NCBI GenBank assembly: GCA_949289505.1
Contig: CASEOP010000048.1
Span: 1 to 39,797, forward strand
From: an uncultured Mycoplasmatota bacterium
GTDB lineage: Bacteria > Bacillota_I > Bacilli_A > RF39 > UBA660
DNA length: 39,797 bases
Reading direction: 5' to 3'
Made by a program: the position numbers and the translations under genes
The notes under the pieces: model-generated
Databases searched by the model: none
What the model was told of the DNA's origin: nothing
Seen by the model: only the letters and a program-made list of their open reading frames with translations
In this document: positions 22,007-38,413 of the stretch, piece by piece
Numbering within the stretch: the first letter of the stretch is position 1
How the letters are laid out: every line of letters starts with the position of its first letter

Positions 22007-23329
22007 ATGAAAAAAGTTTTAATATATTTAGAAAATTTATTAAGCAAAGATGACTGTATAGTTGTAGCAACTAGTGGAGGACCTGATTCAATGTGTCTTC
22101 TTCATTTATTGTGTGATTTAAAAGATAAATTTAATTTAAAGCTAATAGTAGCTCATGTTAATCATAAATTAAGAATTGAAAGTGAAGAAGAAGCTGATTT
22201 TGTTAAAGAAGTAGCAACTAAAAACAATTTAATTTATGAATATATGGAAATACTAGAATATAATGATGATAATTTAGAAAATGATGCTAGAACAAAAAGG
22301 TATGAATTTTTTAATAAACTAGCAAGTATTTATCAAGCTAAATATTTAATGACTGCCCATCATGGTGATGATTTAATGGAAACCATTTTAATGCGCTTAA
22401 CTAGAGGAAGTAGCTTAAAGGGTTATAGTGGCTTTAAAAAAGAATACAGGCTAGATAATTATACTATTATAAGACCTTTAATAACTGAAACTAAAAAAAA
22501 TATTGAACAGTTTATGATTGATCACCATTATAAATATTATATTGATCAAAGTAATTTTTCATTTAAATATACAAGAAATAGATATCGACTAAAAGTACTA
22601 CCTTTTCTTAAAGAGGAGGACAAAAATGTTCATCAAAAATTTTTAAAATTTAGTGAAGAATTAATTGCTACCAATAACTTTATCGAAAAATATATAAAAG
22701 AATTAATAGCTAACATAAGTGATAAAAATGGTATAAAAATAAATGAGTTAAGAAAGTTAGATAAATTTTTATTAAAGAAAGTAATTGAATATACTTTAAC
22801 TAAAATATATATTGATGATTTATTTTTAATAAATGATAAGCACACTAATTTAATAATAGGTATTATAAGAAATGATAAAAGTAATAATAAAGTAAATTTA
22901 CCAAATGGTTATGAAGCTATAAAAAGTTATAATTATTATAAAATTGTCAAAATTAATAATGAAGATAATTATGAATATACGTTAGAAGAAAGTATAACTT
23001 TACCTAATCATAATACTATTAAAAAAATTAAGGAGTCTAATCTTAAATCAAATTATATAATAAGGTTAAATAGTAAAGAAATTAAACTACCAATAAAAGT
23101 AAGAAGTCGCCAAAACGGTGATAAAATGTTTGTAAAAAACTTAGGAGGTAGCAAAAAAATAAAAGACATTTACATAGATGAAAAAATTCCAATCGAAAAA
23201 AGGAAAGAAATTCCAATTGTAACTGATAGTAATAACACCATTCTTTGGCTACCAGGTGTAAAAAAGTCAAAATTTGATGTAGAAACTACTGGAATATATG
23301 ATATAATACTTAAATATGAGGAGGAATAA
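22007..23329 (+). CDS. tilS: tRNA(Ile)-lysidine synthase
   Basis: PP-loop VVATSGGPDSMCLLHLL, AHVNHKLR, TAHHGDD, and C-terminal TilS domain (RSRQNGDKM...GGSKKIKDIYID). The tilS-ftsH arrangement matches known synteny. Confidence 0.92.
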   Translation: MKKVLIYLENLLSKDDCIVVATSGGPDSMCLLHLLCDLKDKFNLKLIVAHVNHKLRIESEEEADFVKEVATKNNLIYEYMEILEYNDDNLENDARTKRYEFFNKLASIYQAKYLMTAHHGDDLMETILMRLTRGSSLKGYSGFKKEYRLDNYTIIRPLITETKKNIEQFMIDHHYKYYIDQSNFSFKYTRNRYRLKVLPFLKEEDKNVHQKFLKFSEELIATNNFIEKYIKELIANISDKNGIKINELRKLDKFLLKKVIEYTLTKIYIDDLFLINDKHTNLIIGIIRNDKSNNKVNLPNGYEAIKSYNYYKIVKINNEDNYEYTLEESITLPNHNTIKKIKESNLKSNYIIRLNSKEIKLPIKVRSRQNGDKMFVKNLGGSKKIKDIYIDEKIPIEKRKEIPIVTDSNNTILWLPGVKKSKFDVETTGIYDIILKYEEE

Positions 23330-23330
23330 A

Positions 23331-25295
23331 ATGAATATTAAAGATGTAAGGAAGAATAATACTGTAAGAAACTTTTTTCCCTATTTAGTTTTATTTATAA
23401 TAATTATTGCAACCTTATTTATATTAAACTTAGGAGGAAAAAAGGTAAATGAATTAACAACTGGAGAATTAATTACAGCATTACAAAAAAATGAAGTAAC
23501 AGAAATTACCATTATGCCTAAAAGTAGTGAATCAATATATTACATAAAAGGAAAAATAGATGGATATAAAAATAATGAATCTTTTGAAGCAAAAGTTGTT
23601 GAAGCTGAAGTAGACAATATCTTAGCTTTAACCTTAGAAAATGAAATAGCAGAATATGAAACAGAAGCTGATCCAGGTTCTAGTCCAGTTTTGTATATAA
23701 TTGTAAATGTTTTACCATTAGTAATATTAGTAATAATATCATATATATTATTTTCTAAATTAGCAAGTACTAATAAAGGTTCAATGGATTTTGGCAAGAG
23801 TAGAGCTAAACTAAGCGATGATAAACATCAAGCAAAATTTGCTGATGTAGCCGGTTTAAAAGAAGAAAAGGAAGAAGTAAAAGAATTAATAGACTTCTTA
23901 AAAAATCCTAAAAAGTTTCAAAAATTAGGAGCTAGAATACCAAAAGGTGTTCTACTAGTAGGCCCTCCAGGAACAGGTAAAACGCTTTTAGCAAGAGCAG
24001 TAGCAGGTGAAGCTAACGTTCCATTTTTCTATATCAGTGGTTCTGATTTCGTTGAATTATTTGTTGGTGTTGGAGCTTCTCGTGTACGTGAGATGTTTAA
24101 AGATGCTAAAAGAAATGCCCCATGCTTAATATTTATAGATGAAATAGATGCAGTAGGACGTCAAAGAGGAACAGGCCTAGGAGGAGGTCACGATGAACGT
24201 GAACAAACTCTAAACCAATTATTAACCGAAATGGACGGATTTGGAGAAAATGAAGGCATTATAATTATGGCTGCCACCAATAGACCTGATGTATTAGATC
24301 CAGCCCTACTTCGTCCAGGCCGTTTTGACCGTCAAGTTACTGTAAGCTTGCCTGATGCTAATGAAAGGGAAGCAATATTAAAAGTTCATGCTCGTAACAA
24401 AATATTAGCAAGTGATGTTAACATTAAAAATTTAAGTTTAAGAACACCAGGATTTAGTGGCGCAGACCTAGAGAATCTTCTTAATGAAGCAGCATTACTA
24501 GCCGTAAGAAGAAATAAAGATGCAATAACAATGGATGAAATAGATGAAGCAACTGATCGTGTATTAATGGGACCTGCCAAAGTAAGTCGAAAAATTACGG
24601 ATAAAGAAAAGAAATTAGTAGCTATTCATGAATCAGGTCATGCCGTAATTGGTTTAAAACTTGAAGATGCAAATGAAGTTCATAAAATAACTATAATTCC
24701 TAGAGGTGTAGCAGGTGGTTACACAATGATGTTACCAAAAGAAGAAAAAATAGGCATAATGACCAAAAAGGAATTAGAAGCTCAAATTACCGGTTTACTA
24801 GCCGGAAGAGTTAGTGAAGAAATGTATCTAGGTGAAATTACAACAGGAGCATCTGATGATTTCAAAAGAGCAACTAATATTGCTCGCGCAATGGTTACTG
24901 AATATGGTATGAGTGACTTAGGCCCAGTAGAATATGAAGAAAAAACTGGTGGAGTGTTCTTAGGTCGAGATTATGGTAAAGCTAAAAATTTCTCTGATAA
25001 AGTAGCTCATGAAATAGATGAAGAAGTACGAAAAATAATAAATGAATGCTATGAAAAAGCTAAAAATATATTAAAAGCTAACAAAGATTTAGTAATGTTA
25101 TTAGCTGATGCTTTAATTGAAAATGAAACACTAACCAAAGAACAAATAGATTCATTAGTAAAAACTGGAAAAATGAGTTCAAGTGAATCATCAGAAAAAA
25201 CAATAACTGAACTTAGAGAAGAAGCTAAAATAAAAGGAATTAAAGGCTATACCAAAATGACTAAAGAAGAATTAGAAGAAGCATTAAAAGACTAA
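23331..25295 (+). CDS. ftsH: ATP-dependent zinc metalloprotease FtsH
   Basis: Walker A GPPGTGKT, Walker B IIFIDEID, SRH region, Zn motif HESGHA. The ORF track starts at 23316, but ATG 23331 follows GAGGAGG by 6 nt. Confidence 0.95.
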
Positions 25296-25943: not shown

Positions 25944-27593
25944 TTGAAAAAAAGATTTATATTTGATGAAAATTATATAAAAAAATATGCTAAAAGAGGT
26001 CGTTTAAGATGGTTAATTATTGGTTTATCAACTCTTGTATTAATTACTATAATCATAATAGTATTATTAGCAAACAAAAATAAACCTAAAAATCCTACTG
26101 AACCAGCTCTTCCCGTATTCGAAATAAAAGAAGAATTAAAAATAGAAGCAGGAAGTAAATTACCAGCTAAAATAGACTATTTTGATAAATTAGAAAACAT
26201 AGACGAGGCTGAAATAGAAATAATTTATCCTGATGAATTCGAACTAAGTTATGATACTTCATTATGCGAAAAAGAAGTAATTGAAGAAATATATAGTAGT
26301 GAAAACCCTAATTATGAAGAATATGAATGTGTTATCAATTATTTGATAACTCCTGCTAGTTATGGTATTACAGTTAAAATTCAAAATGAAGAATATACCG
26401 TTAATTTAATAGTAGAGGATACAAAGCCACCAGTTTTAATAACTCAAGACTTAGAAATATTTGAAAATGAGAAATATGAAGCAACTAATTTTGTAAGTTC
26501 TTGTCTAGATACTACTAGTGAATGTACTATTTCATATTATAGTGATGATAAAGATGAAAATGATAATCCAATAGATTATGCAAACATAACTGAAGTTGGT
26601 GAACACAAAATTAAAATAGTTGCAACTGATGAATATGGTAATACTACTAGTCCAACTGAAGCTAAATTAACTATCTTAAAAAATGATGGAACGTATTACA
26701 CGATTACTTTTAACTCTGATGGTGGTTCTCAAGTAAATGATAAAAATGTTATAGAAAATGGCATAGTTATTAAACCCACAACTCCAACTAAAGAAGGCTA
26801 TGAATTTATAGGTTGGTATTTAAATGATGAATTATTTGACTTTAATACGAAAATAACTAGTGATATTAATTTGATAGCAAAATGGAAATTAGTTGAATCA
26901 GAAAATAGTGGAGGTGGTAATAGTGGAAATGGTAGTACACCGGAAAAACCTTCAATAATAAATGTCACAAGTATATCATTAAATTACAAAACTATCTATT
27001 TAACAATGGGTCAAACCAAAACAGTCACTGCAAGTATATATCCTGCTAATGCAACTAATAAAACGATTACATGGAGTAGTTCTAATAATAATATAGCTCA
27101 AGTATCTAATGGTAATATAACCGCAGTAGGAATTGGAAATGCAACCATTACAGCTACTGTAGGGGGAAAAACTGCTAGTGTCCAAGTAATAGTCAATGAC
27201 ACAAGTAGTAGTCCAACATGTAAATATGGTGATACAGTTTATAATAAAAGCTACATATTATCAGTAAATTTAACCCAAAATAATTGTGCAATAGACCCTA
27301 ATAGCAACCCTAGTGAAACTTTATCTTTAACTGATCGTTCAAGATTAGTCAATAATTTAGGTTCAATGGGTATAAATGCTTCAAATAATATAGCTCATGA
27401 GGCCACAATTCAAAAAGTTAAAAATACTAGTGGCCTAGGTTTAGTTGGCTATCAAATAACCATCAAAGCAAGTGTAATAGATACTAACAATCCGTATGTA
27501 GTCATGACTAGCGAATACATCTTAAATCCAGATGGTTCAAGAAAATTTATAACTAATAACATATGTAAAAACAATGTATGTTTATACCCATAA
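25944..27593 (+). CDS. Membrane-anchored surface protein with a Listeria-Bacteroides (Flg_new) repeat and a Big_2 domain
   Basis: TTG start and N-terminal TM (WLIIGLSTLVLITIIIIVLL). The Flg_new-like unit is YTITFNSDGGSQV...PTKEGYEFIGWYLNDELFDFNTKITSDINLIAKW. The Big_2-like unit is VTSISLNYKTIYLTMGQTKTVTASIYPANATNKTITWSSSNNNIAQVSNGNITAVGIGNATITATVGGKTASVQV. Confidence 0.75.
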   Translation: MKKRFIFDENYIKKYAKRGRLRWLIIGLSTLVLITIIIIVLLANKNKPKNPTEPALPVFEIKEELKIEAGSKLPAKIDYFDKLENIDEAEIEIIYPDEFELSYDTSLCEKEVIEEIYSSENPNYEEYECVINYLITPASYGITVKIQNEEYTVNLIVEDTKPPVLITQDLEIFENEKYEATNFVSSCLDTTSECTISYYSDDKDENDNPIDYANITEVGEHKIKIVATDEYGNTTSPTEAKLTILKNDGTYYTITFNSDGGSQVNDKNVIENGIVIKPTTPTKEGYEFIGWYLNDELFDFNTKITSDINLIAKWKLVESENSGGGNSGNGSTPEKPSIINVTSISLNYKTIYLTMGQTKTVTASIYPANATNKTITWSSSNNNIAQVSNGNITAVGIGNATITATVGGKTASVQVIVNDTSSSPTCKYGDTVYNKSYILSVNLTQNNCAIDPNSNPSETLSLTDRSRLVNNLGSMGINASNNIAHEATIQKVKNTSGLGLVGYQITIKASVIDTNNPYVVMTSEYILNPDGSRKFITNNICKNNVCLYP

Positions 27594-33320: not shown

Positions 33321-34034
33321 ATGGAAAAGAAGAACACAATTCTTTTGACAGTTATCGCTGTAGCAACATTATTAGTAGCAGTAGTAGGTGCAACATTTGC
33401 ATACTTCACAGCAACAAGTGCTCCTAATGATCCAAGCAATGCTAGTGCCGATGCTACGACTGCAAATATAGCATCAGTTAATGTAACTTCATCTGCTAAT
33501 CAAAAGGCTTACTTAGAATATCCGGGTGGTATTGCTGTATTAGGCGCTGGCGTACAAATTAAAAAAGACGCTGCATCAGCAGGAAGCACATCTACAGTAG
33601 CTTATAATGTAAATTTAACTTACACAAATGAGACTGCAACTAATTTGCAATACACAATTTATAGAGCTGAAAAAAATAATGAAGATTCAATAGCATTAGC
33701 TGATTTGGATGCATTATGCAGTTTAAGTGTATCTAATGTTGGAGGAGAAGACCAATATTCTTATACATGTACAAAAAATGCTGCCGCATTAGCCGCAAAC
33801 TATGGTACTAAAGTAGGAGAAACTGGTACACTAACAGCAGGTCAAACATCTCAAGAAATTTCAGTAAAAGCAGAAAGCTTTGATCTTGACAGTGAAGCTG
33901 CTATAAATAATTCATACTATTATTATGTAGTTGTAGAGTATCCTAATTCTGGTGACCAAAACGCAGATATGGGCGATGCAATAACATTAGATTTAGATGT
34001 AACACAAGCAACTGTTAGTACTGCAAAAGACTAA
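33321..34034 (+). CDS. Secreted TasA/camelysin-like protein with a SipW-type signal peptide (paralog 2, probable major subunit)
   Basis: Signal peptide KKNTILLTVIAVATLLVAVVGATFAYFTATS. The end of the body, YYYYVVVEYPNSGDQNADMGDAITLDLDVTQA, parallels the TasA C-terminal pattern ...QG....L.F.FEATQ. The gene has an AGGAGG RBS, its own promoter and its own terminator. Ala-rich composition and more GC-rich codons suggest high expression. Confidence 0.75.
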   Translation: MEKKNTILLTVIAVATLLVAVVGATFAYFTATSAPNDPSNASADATTANIASVNVTSSANQKAYLEYPGGIAVLGAGVQIKKDAASAGSTSTVAYNVNLTYTNETATNLQYTIYRAEKNNEDSIALADLDALCSLSVSNVGGEDQYSYTCTKNAAALAANYGTKVGETGTLTAGQTSQEISVKAESFDLDSEAAINNSYYYYVVVEYPNSGDQNADMGDAITLDLDVTQATVSTAKD

Positions 34035-34092: not shown

Positions 34093-34160
34093 GCAATAAA
34101 ATACTTTACAACCAAAAAGCTAGATATTTATAATTAAATGAATGAGGAGAAGAAGAAAAA

Positions 34161-34721
34161 ATGATATTTAACGATTATAATAATGCGTATGACGAATTTA
34201 TTGGTTCTTATCCACTAAATAATTGTAATAAAATAAGTGGTAACATTTTTGCACAAACATTAAGAAAATACATAAAAAATATTATAAATAATACCTATGA
34301 AGTAAGTGAACTTAATGTCTATATTAAAGGAAGTAATATAGAATGGGATATGTTAATACTAAAGAAAAATATAAGCAATAAAGAAAAAGCATATAATATT
34401 TTTAATCCTGAAAATGTAGTATGTGCTATAGAATTTAAAACTAGTGGATTAATGACTAGTAATATTACCTTTGTTCAAAATTATTTTAAAACGCGAATAG
34501 AAGAGTTGGAAAATTTAAACAAAGAAATAAAATTTGCTTATATATCTCTATGTGAAATACCAAAAATAATTGAATATTTAAAACTTAATTATAAGGATAA
34601 TTGTTTTTGGTTAATAGAAGGATATTATAGAAGTAGGAATAAATCAGATACTAAATTAAATGATTATATGGAATTAGAAATATATTTAAAAAATCTACTA
34701 TTAAATGTTGTTAAAATATAA
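34161..34721 (+). CDS. Hypothetical protein with a possible PD-(D/E)xK nuclease-like core
   Basis: 186-aa cytoplasmic-looking ORF. The candidate motif pair is IEWDMLIL (Asp on a hydrophobic strand) and, about 28 aa later, VCAIEFKTSG (E-x-K). The gene is extremely AT-rich compared with both flanking genes. Confidence 0.35.
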   Translation: MIFNDYNNAYDEFIGSYPLNNCNKISGNIFAQTLRKYIKNIINNTYEVSELNVYIKGSNIEWDMLILKKNISNKEKAYNIFNPENVVCAIEFKTSGLMTSNITFVQNYFKTRIEELENLNKEIKFAYISLCEIPKIIEYLKLNYKDNCFWLIEGYYRSRNKSDTKLNDYMELEIYLKNLLLNVVKI

Positions 34722-34784: not shown

Positions 34785-34810
34785 TAAAACATAATATGGA
34801 GGTCTTATTA

Positions 34811-35383
34811 ATGAGCGTAACAAAGAAGAATATAATTTTATCAACCGTATTATGCTTTAGTATAGCTTTAATAGGTGTATCTTTTGCTTATTTTGCAAGT
34901 AGTGTTAACATTACAGGTAATGGTGCCTCAGTATCAGGCTCAACTGCCGATTTGATTAAAGTATCTTATGATGCTGGAAGTAGTATTCTAAGTTTAAATA
35001 ATGCAATTCCTGGGGATTTAGCATCTAAAGAGTTTAGTGTTAAAATCACCCCAACGGCTAACGAAAACAGTGCAACATATGCTATAGTATTAGATATTAG
35101 TAATAATACTTTTGAAAAATGTACAAATGCCACAAATGGTTGTATATTAAATGCAAACGAATTAACTTATACTTTAAAAGGTTCAGATGGTAGTACTTTA
35201 GCTAGTGGTGATTTAACTACTGCAAACGGAAAAATTACCCTTTTAAAAGAGACTAAAACTACTAGTGTTGAAACAACTTATAATTATACATTAGAAATTA
35301 ATTATGTAGATACAAATGCTAATCAAAATCATAATGCAAACAAAACTTTTAATGGTAATGTAAAGGTAGAATTTGCTGATTAA
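34811..35383 (+). CDS. Secreted TasA/camelysin-like protein with a SipW-type signal peptide (paralog 3)
   Basis: Signal peptide KKNIILSTVLCFSIALIGVSFAYFASS. The body carries NAIPGDLASKEFSVKIT (compare TasA PGD...F.F.N) and ends in NANQNHNANKTFNGNVKVEFAD. ATG 34811 follows GGAGG by 7 nt; the ATG at 34796 in the ORF track overlaps that RBS. Confidence 0.75.
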   Translation: MSVTKKNIILSTVLCFSIALIGVSFAYFASSVNITGNGASVSGSTADLIKVSYDAGSSILSLNNAIPGDLASKEFSVKITPTANENSATYAIVLDISNNTFEKCTNATNGCILNANELTYTLKGSDGSTLASGDLTTANGKITLLKETKTTSVETTYNYTLEINYVDTNANQNHNANKTFNGNVKVEFAD

Positions 35384-35416
35384 AACAATTAAATACAAAA
35401 GTAGGGAGTGTTCCAA

Positions 35417-37537
35417 ATGAACGATAGTAATTTACAAGAACAATATGCTTTATTAGAAGAAGAGGAAAGAGAGAATAAAAAGAAAACCATCATAATTATT
35501 ATATTATGCTTATTAATTATATTGACAACTCTTTTAGGAATTTTCTTCTCTATTTCCGGTAATAAAAAATGCAATTTAAACTGCGATACCGATGGCGATG
35601 GTGTATGCGATTTGAATTGTGATACTAACGGTGATGGTATATGTGATGTTAATTGTGATACCGATGGTGATGGCAAACCTGATATTAATATTGATTATAA
35701 TGGTGATTTAATACCTCACTTTAATATTCAAGTAGATGGTGAAATTATAAATCAATTAAATAAGGATATTGATGGCGATGGCAAATGCGATTTGAATTGT
35801 GATATTGATGGTGATGGCTGGCCTGATATTAATATAGACTTCGATAATACTAACACTTGTGATATAAATTGTGATTCAAACGGTGATAATAAGCCTGATT
35901 ACAATATAGATACTGATGGCGATGGCAAACCAGATATTAATATAGACATTGATGGTGATAATAAACCGGATATAAACATCGACATTGATGGTGATAATAA
36001 ACCTGATATAAACATTGACACTGATGGTGATAATAAACCGGATATAAACATCGACACTGATGGTGATAATAAACCTGATATAAACATCGACACTGATGGC
36101 GATGGCAAACCTGATGTTAACATTGATTATGATGGCGATGGCAAACCTGACTATAATATAGATACTGATAGTGATGGCAAACCAGATGATAACCTAATAA
36201 ATCAAGATACAAATAACGATGGTAAATGCGATATAAATTGTGATACAAATAACGATGGTGTGCCTGATATAAACATCGACATTGATGGTGATGGCAAACC
36301 TGATATTAATATAGACACTGATGGCGATGGCAAACCAGATATTAACTTAGATATTGACAAAGATAAAGAGCCTGATATTAATATAGATACCGATGGTGAT
36401 GGCAAACCTGATGAAAACCTTATGAATCAAGATACAAATAACGATGGCAAATGTGACATAAACTGCGATACTGATGGTGATGGCTGGCCTGACATAAACA
36501 TTGATATAGATAATGATGGCAAACCAGATATTAATATAGATACTGATGGTGATGGCAAATGTGATGTCAATTGTGATACAGATAATGATGGCAAACCAGA
36601 TATCAATATTGATATAAATAAAGATGGCAAACCAGATGTCAATATAGATACTGATGACGATGGCAAACCAGATGACAATTTAATAAATCAAGATACCGAT
36701 GGTGATGGTGTTTGCAACATAAATTGTGATACAAACGGTGATGGCGTGCCTGATACCAATATAGATATTGATGGCGATGGTAAACCTGATATTAATATTG
36801 ATGAAGATAATGATGGAGCGTGTGACTACAATTGTTATGATGATTTATATTATGATGCTAATTTAAGTGGAATTAAAGTTGGTAATTATAATTTAAAACC
36901 TAATTTTAATAATAAAATCACTAATTATACTGTAAATGTAGAAAAGAATTTAAATAGTATTGTTGTTGAAGCAACTGCTTTAAATCCTAAAGCGAAAATT
37001 ACAGGAACAGGAGTAATTAATTTAACCGAAGAAAGTACACGGGTAGCAATTACTGTAACTGCTGAAAATGGAAGTACAAAGACTTACTATGTAACTATTA
37101 TAAAATCAGTTGAACCTTCAACTTCTGACGAAGGAGAAGGAAGTTACGAAATTAGCAATGATTCATTAATGGTAAGTTTTACGAAGGCCATGAACGCAAC
37201 AAATATTATTCCTGGATGGGAAGGAACACATGCTTTTACAGTTACTAACAAATCTGATCAAACTTTAGTTTACAATATTAATTTAGTAAAAGTATCAAAC
37301 ACATTTAAAAATAACGAATTTGTCTTTAATTTAGTAAAAGATGGTAAAGTTTTAATTGAAGAAACACCAGCTTTAACTAGTGACAAAACAGTATATAGCA
37401 ACCTCGTAATTGCTCCTGGCGAAACTGCTACATTCCAGATGAATTACAAATTTATTTATCACGATTATAGCCAAGATTATAATCAAGGAGTAAGATATAC
37501 AGGAACCGTTGAAATAACTTTTGATGCTATTCAATAA
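35417..37537 (+). CDS. N-terminally membrane-anchored giant surface protein with Asp-rich Ca-binding (TSP type-3-like) repeats, a cadherin-like beta-sandwich and a C-terminal TasA-like domain
   Basis: An acidic cytoplasmic head is followed by a TM helix (TIIIIILCLLIILTTLLGIFFSI). About 35 units of the D-x-N-x-D-x-D-G-D-G-K-P type follow, some with Cys (CDLNCDTNGDGICD). The cadherin-like motif is LSGIKVGNYNLKPNFNNKITNYTVNV...ITVTAENGSTKTYYVTI. The C-terminal ~150 aa align with the small TasA-like paralogs and end in DYNQGVRYTGTVEITFDAIQ (compare TasA NKYQGNSIKLQFSFEATQ). The ORF track starts at GTG 35408; ATG 35417 follows an AGGGAG RBS. Confidence 0.8.
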   Translation: MNDSNLQEQYALLEEEERENKKKTIIIIILCLLIILTTLLGIFFSISGNKKCNLNCDTDGDGVCDLNCDTNGDGICDVNCDTDGDGKPDINIDYNGDLIPHFNIQVDGEIINQLNKDIDGDGKCDLNCDIDGDGWPDINIDFDNTNTCDINCDSNGDNKPDYNIDTDGDGKPDINIDIDGDNKPDINIDIDGDNKPDINIDTDGDNKPDINIDTDGDNKPDINIDTDGDGKPDVNIDYDGDGKPDYNIDTDSDGKPDDNLINQDTNNDGKCDINCDTNNDGVPDINIDIDGDGKPDINIDTDGDGKPDINLDIDKDKEPDINIDTDGDGKPDENLMNQDTNNDGKCDINCDTDGDGWPDINIDIDNDGKPDINIDTDGDGKCDVNCDTDNDGKPDINIDINKDGKPDVNIDTDDDGKPDDNLINQDTDGDGVCNINCDTNGDGVPDTNIDIDGDGKPDINIDEDNDGACDYNCYDDLYYDANLSGIKVGNYNLKPNFNNKITNYTVNVEKNLNSIVVEATALNPKAKITGTGVINLTEESTRVAITVTAENGSTKTYYVTIIKSVEPSTSDEGEGSYEISNDSLMVSFTKAMNATNIIPGWEGTHAFTVTNKSDQTLVYNINLVKVSNTFKNNEFVFNLVKDGKVLIEETPALTSDKTVYSNLVIAPGETATFQMNYKFIYHDYSQDYNQGVRYTGTVEITFDAIQ
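35570..36844 (+). repeat. Coding repeat region made of degenerate 36-bp (12-codon) Asp-rich units, with three ~75-85-aa super-repeats
   Basis: Periodic GATGG(T/C)GATGGCAAACC(T/A)GATATTAATATAGA-type units run throughout. The super-repeat marker NQDT(N/D)(N/G)DG(K/V)C(D/N)INCDT occurs three times, at about 36195, 36425 and 36685. Confidence 0.9.
35933..36112 (+). repeat. Five near-identical 36-bp tandem repeats
   Basis: Units start at 35933, 35969, 36005, 36041 and 36077. The consensus is gatataaacatcgacactgatggtgataataaacc(g/t). The four units starting at 35969-36077 differ at about 2-7 positions (mostly 2-3). The first unit (35933) is more divergent, at about 6-11 positions. Confidence 0.9.
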
Positions 37538-37548
37538 AAATAATTTTT

Positions 37549-37572
37549 ACCTATCATATTGATAGGTTTTTT
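37549..37572 (+). terminator. Rho-independent terminator after the giant repeat protein gene
   Basis: Stem acctatca / tgataggt with loop tat, followed by a T-run. Confidence 0.7.
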
Positions 37573-37636: not shown

Positions 37637-38413
37637 ATGAAAGATAATAAAACTTTATGGCGTAAAATCATACACATTATATCAAAAATATTATCATGGA
37701 CCCTATTTGTTATTTTACTTTTAATCGCAGCATTTCTAATATATTATTACATAGCTAACCAAAATTATATAAAAAAGGGTAGTGGTTATGAACCAAAATT
37801 TTCAATATACACCATAGCAACTGGTTCAATGGTTCCGAACATAAATGTTTTAGATGCAGTTATTAATAAAAAAGTTGAAAGTCCCAATGATTTAAAAGTT
37901 GGTGATGTAATTACGTTTAGATCAACAAGTGTATTAACAGCAAATATGACTATAACTCATCGTATAAAAGCGATAGAAACTGATGAAGAAGGAAATATTT
38001 GTTACATTACCAAAGGTGATGCTAATAATGTAGAAGATGATTCATGTACAAAACTAAATAATATTATAGGTAAAGTTATAATAAGAATACCAGGCCTAGG
38101 ACACATTCAAAAATTCTTAGCATCTAAAGCAGGATGGTTATTATGTATTTTAATTCCCGCATTATTTATAATAGGAAAAGACATAATGAAATTAACAAGA
38201 TTATCTAGTATAAACGAAAATGCAAGCAAGATGGGTGAAAAAAAGAAAAAAGACCCAAGAAAGGTAATGGCCGAAAAAAAACGTAAAGAACAAATAAAAA
38301 GAAATTTATTAAATGAAAGTAAAGAACCAAAAAGCTATTATAAAGATCCTAACATAAGAGTAATAGAAAAGAAAAAACCAAATAAAGTCAAAGAAAAACG
38401 AAAGAAAAAATAA
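37637..38413 (+). CDS. sipW: Signal peptidase I, archaeal/ER type (S26B, SipW-like), with a C-terminal TM and a Lys-rich tail
   Basis: N-terminal TM. The catalytic Ser context is IATGSMVPNINVLDAVI and the His context is MTITHRIKAIE. The GDAN motif is YITKGDANNVEDD. A second TM follows (AGWLLCILIPALFIIG), then a ~65-aa K/E-rich tail. Confidence 0.85.
   Translation: MKDNKTLWRKIIHIISKILSWTLFVILLLIAAFLIYYYIANQNYIKKGSGYEPKFSIYTIATGSMVPNINVLDAVINKKVESPNDLKVGDVITFRSTSVLTANMTITHRIKAIETDEEGNICYITKGDANNVEDDSCTKLNNIIGKVIIRIPGLGHIQKFLASKAGWLLCILIPALFIIGKDIMKLTRLSSINENASKMGEKKKKDPRKVMAEKKRKEQIKRNLLNESKEPKSYYKDPNIRVIEKKKPNKVKEKRKKK

Follow-up and report, generated by a model that had tools for sequence, protein, structure and literature searches.

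Asp-rich 12-residue Dx[DN]xDG units in a putative membrane-anchored stalk protein encoded beside a SipW-type signal peptidase

What kind of repeat makes up the long Asp-rich middle of a protein encoded on a contig from an uncultured Mycoplasmatota bacterium (GTDB lineage Bacteria; Bacillota_I; Bacilli_A; RF39; UBA660), what might that repeat do, and can the number of its units change? Positions 1 to 39,797 of the contig, CASEOP010000048.1 of assembly GCA_949289505.1, were analysed, a stretch of 39,797 nucleotides (nt) that we call the window. An earlier interpretation made from the letters alone (the sequence-only reading) had described the segment as about 35 calcium-binding units resembling those of thrombospondin type-3 (TSP3), forming a calcium-stiffened stalk of changeable length. 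The units and their register are as described and length variation is seen in close relatives, and the repeat appears to belong to a more general class of Dx[DN]xDG loops. We give a little better than an even chance to the interpretation that the array is a membrane-anchored stalk of Ca2+ loops, carrying a cadherin-like and a TasA-like tip within a SipW/TasA-type gene cluster.

An in-frame array of 12-residue units beside a membrane helix

The stalk-protein gene occupies 35417..37537 on the + strand and encodes 706 amino acids (aa) from ATG 35417, with a public ENA gene call identical in sequence. The open reading frame (ORF) as given in the ORF list begins further upstream, at GTG 35408, and runs to 37537 on the same strand (709 aa); the ATG is the likelier start of the coding sequence, because a GGGAG motif lies 8 nt 5' of it and the ENA call agrees. 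Residues are numbered from this ATG throughout. The parts of the protein follow one another in the order N-terminal membrane anchor, repeat array, cadherin-like domain and TasA-like beta-sandwich. A hydropathy scan places a transmembrane (TM) helix at residues 25-43 (35489..35545, + strand). The charged segment EEEERENKKK before it is predicted to be cytoplasmic, and the helix is predicted to be a signal-anchor in the N-in/C-out orientation; the SipW-type FAYF motif carried by the neighbouring cargo proteins is absent from this N-terminus. The first regular unit of the array begins 14 residues past the helix.

The array itself spans residues 52-476 (425 aa; 35570..36844, + strand). Anchored on the Asp core, it parses into 32 units in strict 12-aa register and two irregular insertions, which are extensions of unit 4 (DYNGDLIPHFNIQVDGEIINQLNK) and unit 6 (..DFDNTNTCDINC). 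The result, 32 regular and two irregular Dx[DN]xDG units in frame, agrees well with the roughly 35 Asp-rich 12-residue units of the sequence-only reading. The unit consensus is DTDGDGKPDINI, that is, D-T-D-G-D-G-K-P-D-I-N-I. All 32 regular units have Asp1, Asp or Asn at position 3, Asp5 and Asn11; Asp9 is present in 30, Gly6 in 25 and Pro8 in 24, and position 12 is occupied by Ile (20 units), Cys (8) or Leu (4) and never by Asp. The array is 30% Asp, 15% Asn, 13% Ile and 11% Gly, and its 127 Asp, 4 Glu and 26 Lys residues amount to a net charge of -105. The Dx[DN]xDG motif occurs 25 times in the 425 residues, compared with 1.8 +/- 1.3 times (maximum 8) in 2000 composition-preserving shuffles.

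Cys residues replace Pro8 and Ile/Leu12 jointly and never singly: C8 and C12 are both present in eight units and both absent from the other 24 (P about 1e-7). Two further pairs, CNLNC ahead of unit 1 and CDINC within unit 6, bring the C-x3-C pairs to ten, and past the TM helix the protein has no Cys outside these ten. Because the covariation from P8/I12 to C8/C12 is strict, positions 8 and 12 probably touch each other within a defined fold. Three units are 15 aa long (..DNLINQ, ..ENLMNQ and ..DNLINQ); each is followed by a Cys unit, and they bound super-repeats of 75 and 87 aa. At the first junction (36161..36241, + strand) the 15-aa unit DTDSDGKPDDNLINQ precedes the Cys unit DTNNDGKCDINC, at the second (36386..36466, + strand) ..ENLMNQ precedes DTNNDGKCDINC, and at the third (36647..36727, + strand) ..DNLINQ precedes DTDGDGVCNINC. 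Cys-bearing variants thus stand where the sequence-only reading had noted them, at the start of the array and in three super-repeats.

The array at the nucleotide level

Tandem Repeats Finder (TRF) reports a 36-bp period of 21.2 copies over 35894-36673, with matches of only 71%, and super-periods of 225 bp and 261 bp (74-78% identity), the former at the second junction and the latter at the third. The near-perfect 36-bp DNA repeats of the sequence-only reading exist for about four units, units 9-12 (DIDGDNKPDINI / DTDGDNKPDINI; 35945..36088, + strand), which differ pairwise at 1-3 of 36 nt, but not for the array as a whole, where no exact direct repeat is longer than the 35-bp one at 35950 and 36022 (offset 72 bp) and all other unit pairs differ at 3-23 of 36 positions. 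If the units are cut in the register used by that reading (35933-36112), the last four differ pairwise at 1-6 nt and the first differs from these at 4-9. The invariant residues use synonymous codons (D1, GAT 24 and GAC 7; N11, AAT 20 and AAC 11; P8, CCT, CCA and CCG), and for this reason most of the array appears old and under selection at the protein level. Units 9-12 look like a recent local expansion and would be the likeliest site for gaining or losing units.

Two minus-strand ORFs in the region of the array, 35389-35676 (95 aa) and 36427-36678 (83 aa), encode SPS/LPS-rich low-complexity sequence. We rejected both as genes; they are most likely by-products of reading the repeat on the opposite strand.

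Assignment of the repeat to a loop class

The TSP3 label did not survive a Pfam search. TSP_3 (PF02412) matched neither the whole stalk protein at E <= 1 nor four native segments at E <= 10, and it matched none of six other array-bearing proteins searched with Pfam; an idealised consensus of three units reached 14.3 bits (E 0.033), under the 25-bit gathering cutoff. The TSP_3 motif DxDxDGxxDxxD is represented in the array by D1, [DN]3, D5 and D9, and Asp12 is missing. The Cys pattern also differs from the inter-repeat disulfides of TSP3, since here the arrangement is C-D-x-N-C, at positions 8 and 12 of a single unit. In TSP3, Cys residues stand in the contexts D-x-C-D and N-C-P, and unit lengths alternate. 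That the array works like TSP3 is a reasonable analogy; that it is a TSP3 repeat is not supported.

The same idealised consensus scored 22.1 bits against FG-GAP, 23.2 against FG-GAP_3 and 13 against EF-hand_5, and its FG-GAP, TSP_3 and EF-hand matches all fall on the Ca-loop positions of the models. A three-unit profile searched against all PDB sequences found only polcalcin EF-hand loops, with IDTDGDGFIDFN aligned to IDIDGDGKPDIN (E 0.023). The units are not canonical EF-hands: the array is helix-free in the AlphaFold2 (AF2) model described below, position 12 holds a hydrophobic residue or Cys, and the Pfam EF-hand matches are sub-threshold and confined to loop positions. They do have the linear Dx[DN]xDG motif followed by a later acidic ligand (D9, 30/32) and by Asn11 (32/32). 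Judged by sequence, the array unit falls into the generic Dx[DN]xDG loop class, and its nearest solved match is an EF-hand loop, minus the helices and Glu12. Ca2+ binding by this motif is nearly identical in at least 12 unrelated folds or contexts, thrombospondin included (Rigden et al., 2011, PMC3123361).

Searches of Pfam and NCBIfam with the whole protein and with segments gave no membership in TSP_3, TSP3_bac, dockerin, RTX or EF-hand families. The NCBIfam ClfA/Sdr matches of the array, far under their cutoffs, were set aside as compositional, and a PDB sequence search with the array returned chance matches to filamin and designed proteins only.

Predicted structure of the stalk protein

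AF2 was run on the full-length protein with a 40-sequence family alignment (mean pLDDT, the predicted local distance difference test score, 76.9). Array residues ~55-225 were modelled at pLDDT 82-95 and without helices, with a pair of isolated beta-bridges, at positions 10 and 12 of the unit, that recurs every 12 residues. Outside the array the model has a long N-terminal helix at residues 6-47, which includes the TM segment, and two confident C-terminal beta-sandwiches. Confidence falls at the three 15-aa junctions, being low at residues 242-259 (the first junction) and below pLDDT 50 at residues 309-333 (the second) and 416-431 (the third). A Foldseek search of the full model against PDB found nothing like the array, its top matches all being to the C-terminal beta-sandwiches.

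The cadherin-like beta-sandwich (residues 494-562; 36896..37102, + strand) matches Pfam PF12733 at E 1.7e-7, its 32 bits clearing the 24.2-bit cutoff, and the same domain occurs in 11 of 40 family members. The TasA-like C-terminal beta-sandwich (residues ~584-706; 37166..37534, + strand) has AF2 pLDDT values of 82-94 and ends in the family motif QDYNQG.... In Foldseek it matches the TasA fibre structure 8aur_A at rank 9 (E 2.5e-4, probability 1.0, TM-score (target) 0.31).

The repeat in other proteins

At least 1,298 proteins were retrieved by a word-indexed search with the full stalk protein. With the array as query, an exhaustive phmmer run over 1.84 billion cluster representatives gave 1,578 matches at E <= 1e-3, 536 at E <= 1e-10 and 142 at E <= 1e-30, many of them proteins of 1,000-7,000 aa with the array near the C-terminus. 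Arrays are found together with MucBP, L-type lectin, Ig-like, Flg_new and transglutaminase domains, and Pfam labels none of the arrays in the array-bearing proteins searched.

The array lies next to a membrane anchor in many otherwise unrelated proteins. In 55 of 121 array-bearing proteins no more than 40 aa separate it from a TM segment, and in 17 of 20 C-terminally anchored proteins, Clostridioides difficile CbpA included, it ends 10-35 aa before the anchor. CbpA (CD3145) has ~14 almost perfect DINIDTDGDGKP units directly before its NVQTG/TM anchor. No paper containing the repeat motif was found in the literature searched, nor any published description or functional test of the CbpA repeat, on which reviews of CbpA are silent.

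Among proteins P0001-P0120, C-x3-C pairs are confined to TM-anchored proteins with a TasA-like domain at the C-terminus, and the C-terminally anchored CbpA type has none; the repeat family appears to comprise two sub-types that follow protein architecture. An abundant sister family (P0010, P0025, P0033 and relatives, in clusters of 135-281 sequences) shares the repeat stalk and the TasA-like C-terminal domain, carries a further, cytoplasmic domain (~95 aa) N-terminal to the TM segment and has no cadherin-like domain.

Array length varies among close relatives

No second assembly of the source species was found in scans of genome contigs, which gave one 50%-identical metagenome-assembled genome (MAG), and of metagenome contigs, which gave nothing, and the exact stalk protein is absent from a collection of 15 billion proteins. 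An identical neighbour gene is present on one contig only, the ENA scaffold of the window itself (ERZ16268284 scaffold_665), in which the stalk gene is identical too. This ENA copy (L006) and the window show six clustered differences at 24473-24794, within ORF 23316-25295 (AAA + Peptidase_M41, FtsH-like), and are identical over the rest of the 16.5 kb that they share, the stalk gene included; given these differences, two contig versions, or two strains, are on record.

Orthologues with the same N- and C-terminal parts have 5-16 strict units, compared with 32 here. In the closest, a sister species at 58% identity, alleles of 452, 527 (in three arrangements) and 542 aa have identical ends, making five structures. 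Two of its alleles are distinguished by a single in-frame indel of 225 bp, with flanks that differ at 1/2000 and 0/1300 nt, and the indel ends in the imperfect direct repeat AATAATGATGGyAAACCAGATA. Assemblies of three samples gave the same sequence for the short allele, and one 527-aa arrangement carries a 75-aa duplication. Two further proteins, P0003 and P0376, are 490 and 579 aa long. The same behaviour is seen in C. difficile, where CbpA proteins of ~99% identity differ by 12-aa indels, a more divergent allele (~90%) adds a 36-aa indel, and one length allele sits on a 4.13-Mb contig of an isolate genome. Three other related species-level clusters, of 3-5 sequences each, have a single length apiece, and length variation is on this account occasional and not rampant. 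The claim of the sequence-only reading that the arrays change in length is borne out in these close relatives, by the 452/527/542-aa alleles of the sister species and the CbpA indels.

The N-terminal GDTNAGNAE-type repeats of CbpA alleles P0041, P0046, P0071 and P0101 differ by indels of 18 and 45 aa (alignment columns 65-109), and CbpA appears to have two independent length-variable repeat regions.

A SipW-type cluster around the stalk gene

The stalk gene has two genes for small, putatively secreted proteins upstream and a signal peptidase gene downstream. The first upstream protein (237 aa; 33321..34034, + strand), a putative fibre subunit, has a putative SipW-type signal peptide (..VGATFAYFTA) and 2025 homologues, one of which is named 'SipW-dependent-type signal peptide-containing protein' by NCBI; 21 of 26 homologues match TIGR04088 at E <= 0.1 (best E 1.3e-4). 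The second (195 aa; 34796..35383, + strand, in the ORF list; 190 aa from the ENA start at 34811) has a similar segment, ..GVSFAYFAS, and a C-terminal motif that aligns weakly with the last domain of the stalk protein (BLASTP E 0.05). The FAYF[TA] motif is visible in both of the window's own proteins, neither of which matches TIGR04088 at E <= 1, and PDB sequence searches with the two gave no matches.

Downstream, at 37637..38413 (+ strand), lies a SipW-type (archaeal/ER-type) signal peptidase I that matches TIGR02228 with 91.6 bits against a 51.85 cutoff (E 4.4e-26). The SipW equivalog model NF046067 scores 80 bits on it against a cutoff of 190, so that the enzyme is of SipW type and not an equivalog. 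A consensus scan found a terminator-like hairpin (8-bp stem and T run; 37549..37567, + strand) between the stalk stop codon and sipW, which suggests that sipW may be transcribed at a level different from that of the structural genes. The gene order Tex, cargo, stalk, SipW and FemAB (minus strand) is kept in two loci of the sister species (L001, L002) and in one of an uncultured Bacilli MAG from Hadza gut (L005). TasA fibres polymerise through donor-strand exchange, with TapA as the anchoring/assembly protein (PMC9674648, PMC10151520).

Between the two SipW-cargo genes lies a 186-aa ORF (34161-34721, + strand) that looks inserted into the cluster, because the syntenic loci L001, L002 and L005 lack it. 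It has a weak, sub-threshold Pfam match to DUF6602 (E 0.0024) and none in PADLOC or NCBIfam, and a strong promoter-like site with 11/12 matches stands just 5' of it, at 34105-34134. About 6 kb upstream, a 549-aa protein (25944-27593, + strand; called as a gene in L006) combines Flg_new and Big_2 domains; the same domain pair is fused to the Asp-rich repeat in P0017 and P0018.

Weighing a Ca2+-loop stalk against other explanations

If the array is a stalk of Ca2+ loops, it would consist of ~34 helix-less EF-hand-like loops set head to tail outside the cell, one every 12 residues. In each unit Ca2+ would be held by Asp1, Asp/Asn3, Asp5, the backbone carbonyl of residue 7 and Asp9, next to the invariant Asn11. 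From the units that match the ligand positions of the canonical Ca2+ loop, we infer that the array would bind roughly 25-32 Ca2+ ions and fold as a regular rod, not as a floppy polyanion, with Cys8-Cys12 forming a probable local disulfide staple at ten places. The rod would begin ~10 residues after the TM helix and end in the cadherin-like domain and the TasA-like sandwich. The stalk of the sequence-only reading fits this layout because the array lies between the N-terminal helix and the two distal domains; calcium binding and the stiffening by calcium that it also proposed are predicted features.

Such a stalk could reach through the cell wall and keep a TasA-family fibre, or the subunit that nucleates or terminates it, at a fixed distance from the membrane, in a role analogous to that of TapA. 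This role is the most likely one because the gene adjoins genes for proteins with putative SipW-type signal peptides and one for a SipW-type peptidase. The fibre would be built from the two neighbouring secreted proteins, and the tip of the stalk would nucleate or end it. Unequal recombination or slippage among its own repeats may change the length of the stalk, in steps of 12 aa or of ~75-aa super-units.

Several observations weigh against this interpretation. The bidentate Glu/Asp12 is missing, with Ile, Leu or Cys in its place, which makes the affinity and stoichiometry of Ca2+ binding uncertain, and in an anaerobic gut bacterium disulfides need not form. No solved structure matches the repeat, whether by PDB sequence search or by Foldseek. 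An AF2 model of the array alone, from a shallow 12-sequence alignment, reached a pLDDT of just 46.7, and the high confidence in the array of the full-length model accordingly hinges on the alignment. The TM-score of the TasA match is low, and generic beta-sandwiches rank above it. The last domain has no Pfam match (Peptidase_M73 included) and no PDB sequence match even as a profile, and its comparison with the 237-aa cargo family by hhalign gave E 0.001 but a probability of 21%, with a shared C-terminal NQNxDxGK. Anchor adjacency is common and not universal, because ~17 array-bearing proteins have the array ~200-250 aa from their sole predicted hydrophobic segment.

A more ambitious proposal is that the array represents an undescribed Ca2+-dependent rod fold of helix-less EF-hand loops stacked end to end, in which the Pro8/Ile12 contact can be swapped for a Cys8-Cys12 staple, that Firmicutes use it as a modular ruler of tunable length on the anchor side of many surface proteins, and that here, through a fused TasA-like acceptor domain, it serves uncultured gut Bacilli as the membrane tether of a TasA-superfamily fibre and a functional analogue of TapA. 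We consider this less likely than not.

The array might instead be a Ca2+-dependent binding or sensing module, which bridges to teichoic acids or matrix polysaccharide, or supplies or senses Ca2+ for the assembly of the TasA-like fibre. Some matrix proteins of the TasA superfamily do assemble on Ca2+, as in the Ca2+-responsive assembly of AbpX (preprint 10.64898/2026.01.04.697558); the predicted place of the array is at the cell wall and its polyanions, and C. difficile CbpA is one of the adhesins that share the repeat. Copy number among orthologues, however, has a two- to six-fold spread that would be unusual in a specific binding site, the partner domains are very diverse, and a position on the anchor side at either terminus suits a generic spacer better. 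We consider a binding or sensing role unlikely.

An array with 30% Asp and this much negative charge could also be a disordered polyanionic spacer, similar to the Ser-Asp regions of staphylococcal ClfA and Sdr proteins, that acts through length and charge and has no specific Ca2+ sites. The NCBIfam matches, which cover only the SD-repeat parts of ClfA and SdrC/D and lie far below the cutoffs, point in this direction, as do the low confidence of the array-alone model and the low pLDDT at the super-repeat junctions. A spacer of this kind would not be expected to conserve particular positions (D1, D5 and N11 invariant, P8 and G6 strongly preferred) through synonymous codon change and across more than 1,000 proteins, and the strict exchange of P8/I12 for C8/C12 implies that the two positions meet within a fold; over ~170 residues, moreover, the full-length AF2 model is confident and regular. 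Position-specific conservation and Cys covariation make this explanation a disfavoured and rather improbable one.

That the unit count here and some of the relatives' alleles are assembly artefacts, from short-read repeat collapse or mis-joins, would be in keeping with the metagenomic origin of the window scaffold and the sister-species alleles and with the near-identity of units 9-12, but it is disfavoured, and very improbable, since the longest exact repeat, 35 bp, is shorter than reads and final k-mers usually are, identical alleles come from 2-4 independent contigs, one CbpA variant comes from the isolate genome noted above, and the 225-bp indel, with exact end matches of only 10-11 nt, is unlikely to be a k-mer mis-join.

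Relation to known systems and significance

A Ca2+-loop stalk would have several partial precedents. The TSP3 'calcium wire' of TSP-1/COMP (PDB 1ux6) likewise has tandem, extracellular Asp-rich DxDxDG loops without flanking helices and with interspersed Cys, an N-x-x-Q element that precedes some of the units with Cys, and an expected folding round many Ca2+ ions. The array differs from it in its uniform 12-aa period, in having Ile, Leu or Cys and not Asp at position 12 and in placing C-x3-C inside one unit, and no TSP structure is among its sequence or fold matches. EF-hand loops such as those of polcalcin Phl p 7 match unit positions 1-11 (DTDGDGxxDxN) almost residue by residue, whereas the array lacks the entering and exiting helices and Glu12, Asp1 of the next unit following directly after position 12.

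The Ser-Asp R region of ClfA, the Ca2+-binding B repeats of SdrD and the Ca2+-rigidified extender of Marinomonas MpIBP are wall-spanning or extender regions, and in the SdrD and MpIBP stalks Ca2+ has a stiffening effect. Like them, the array is a repetitive acidic segment between an anchor and functional domains, and copy number in such segments is strain-variable; unlike them, it is made of a 12-aa loop and not of a dipeptide or a 100-aa Ig-like domain, it is attached by an N-terminal TM helix and not by a sortase signal, and its cargo is a TasA-like domain. The cluster resembles Bacillus subtilis tapA-sipW-tasA in its dedicated SipW-type peptidase and its small, putatively secreted subunits with SipW-like signals (PMC10151520, PMC9674648), and the stalk protein would resemble TapA as an accessory protein whose beta-sandwich, if related, could nucleate or anchor a fibre. 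TapA, in contrast, lacks a repeat stalk and a cadherin-like domain and is a SipW substrate, not TM-anchored; the gene order differs as well, and homology between TasA/TapA and the window's proteins is confined to weak fold and profile matches. C. difficile CbpA has nearly the same 12-aa unit, also anchor-adjacent and with a copy number that differs among isolates, but it has no Cys units, is anchored at the C-terminus and carries other passenger domains.

Ca2+-loop repeats, TSP3-like 'wires' and stalks of variable length are known already, and no new principle is claimed here. What appears undescribed is this particular 12-residue family, which has no Pfam or NCBIfam model, together with its Pro/Ile to Cys/Cys variant, its recurrent placement on the anchor side and its combination with a TasA-like domain in one protein of a SipW cluster. 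If the Ca2+-loop stalk is correct, the repeat would be a compact, genetically expandable, Ca2+-dependent spacer of many Firmicute surface proteins, CbpA among them. Such arrays are now annotated as 'low complexity' or 'disordered', and defining the repeat would improve the annotation of ~1,500 protein clusters. With such a definition one could also test how Gram-positive cells control how far adhesins and matrix fibres extend through the wall, and the operon context suggests a route by which organisms without a recognisable TapA may anchor TasA-like fibres.

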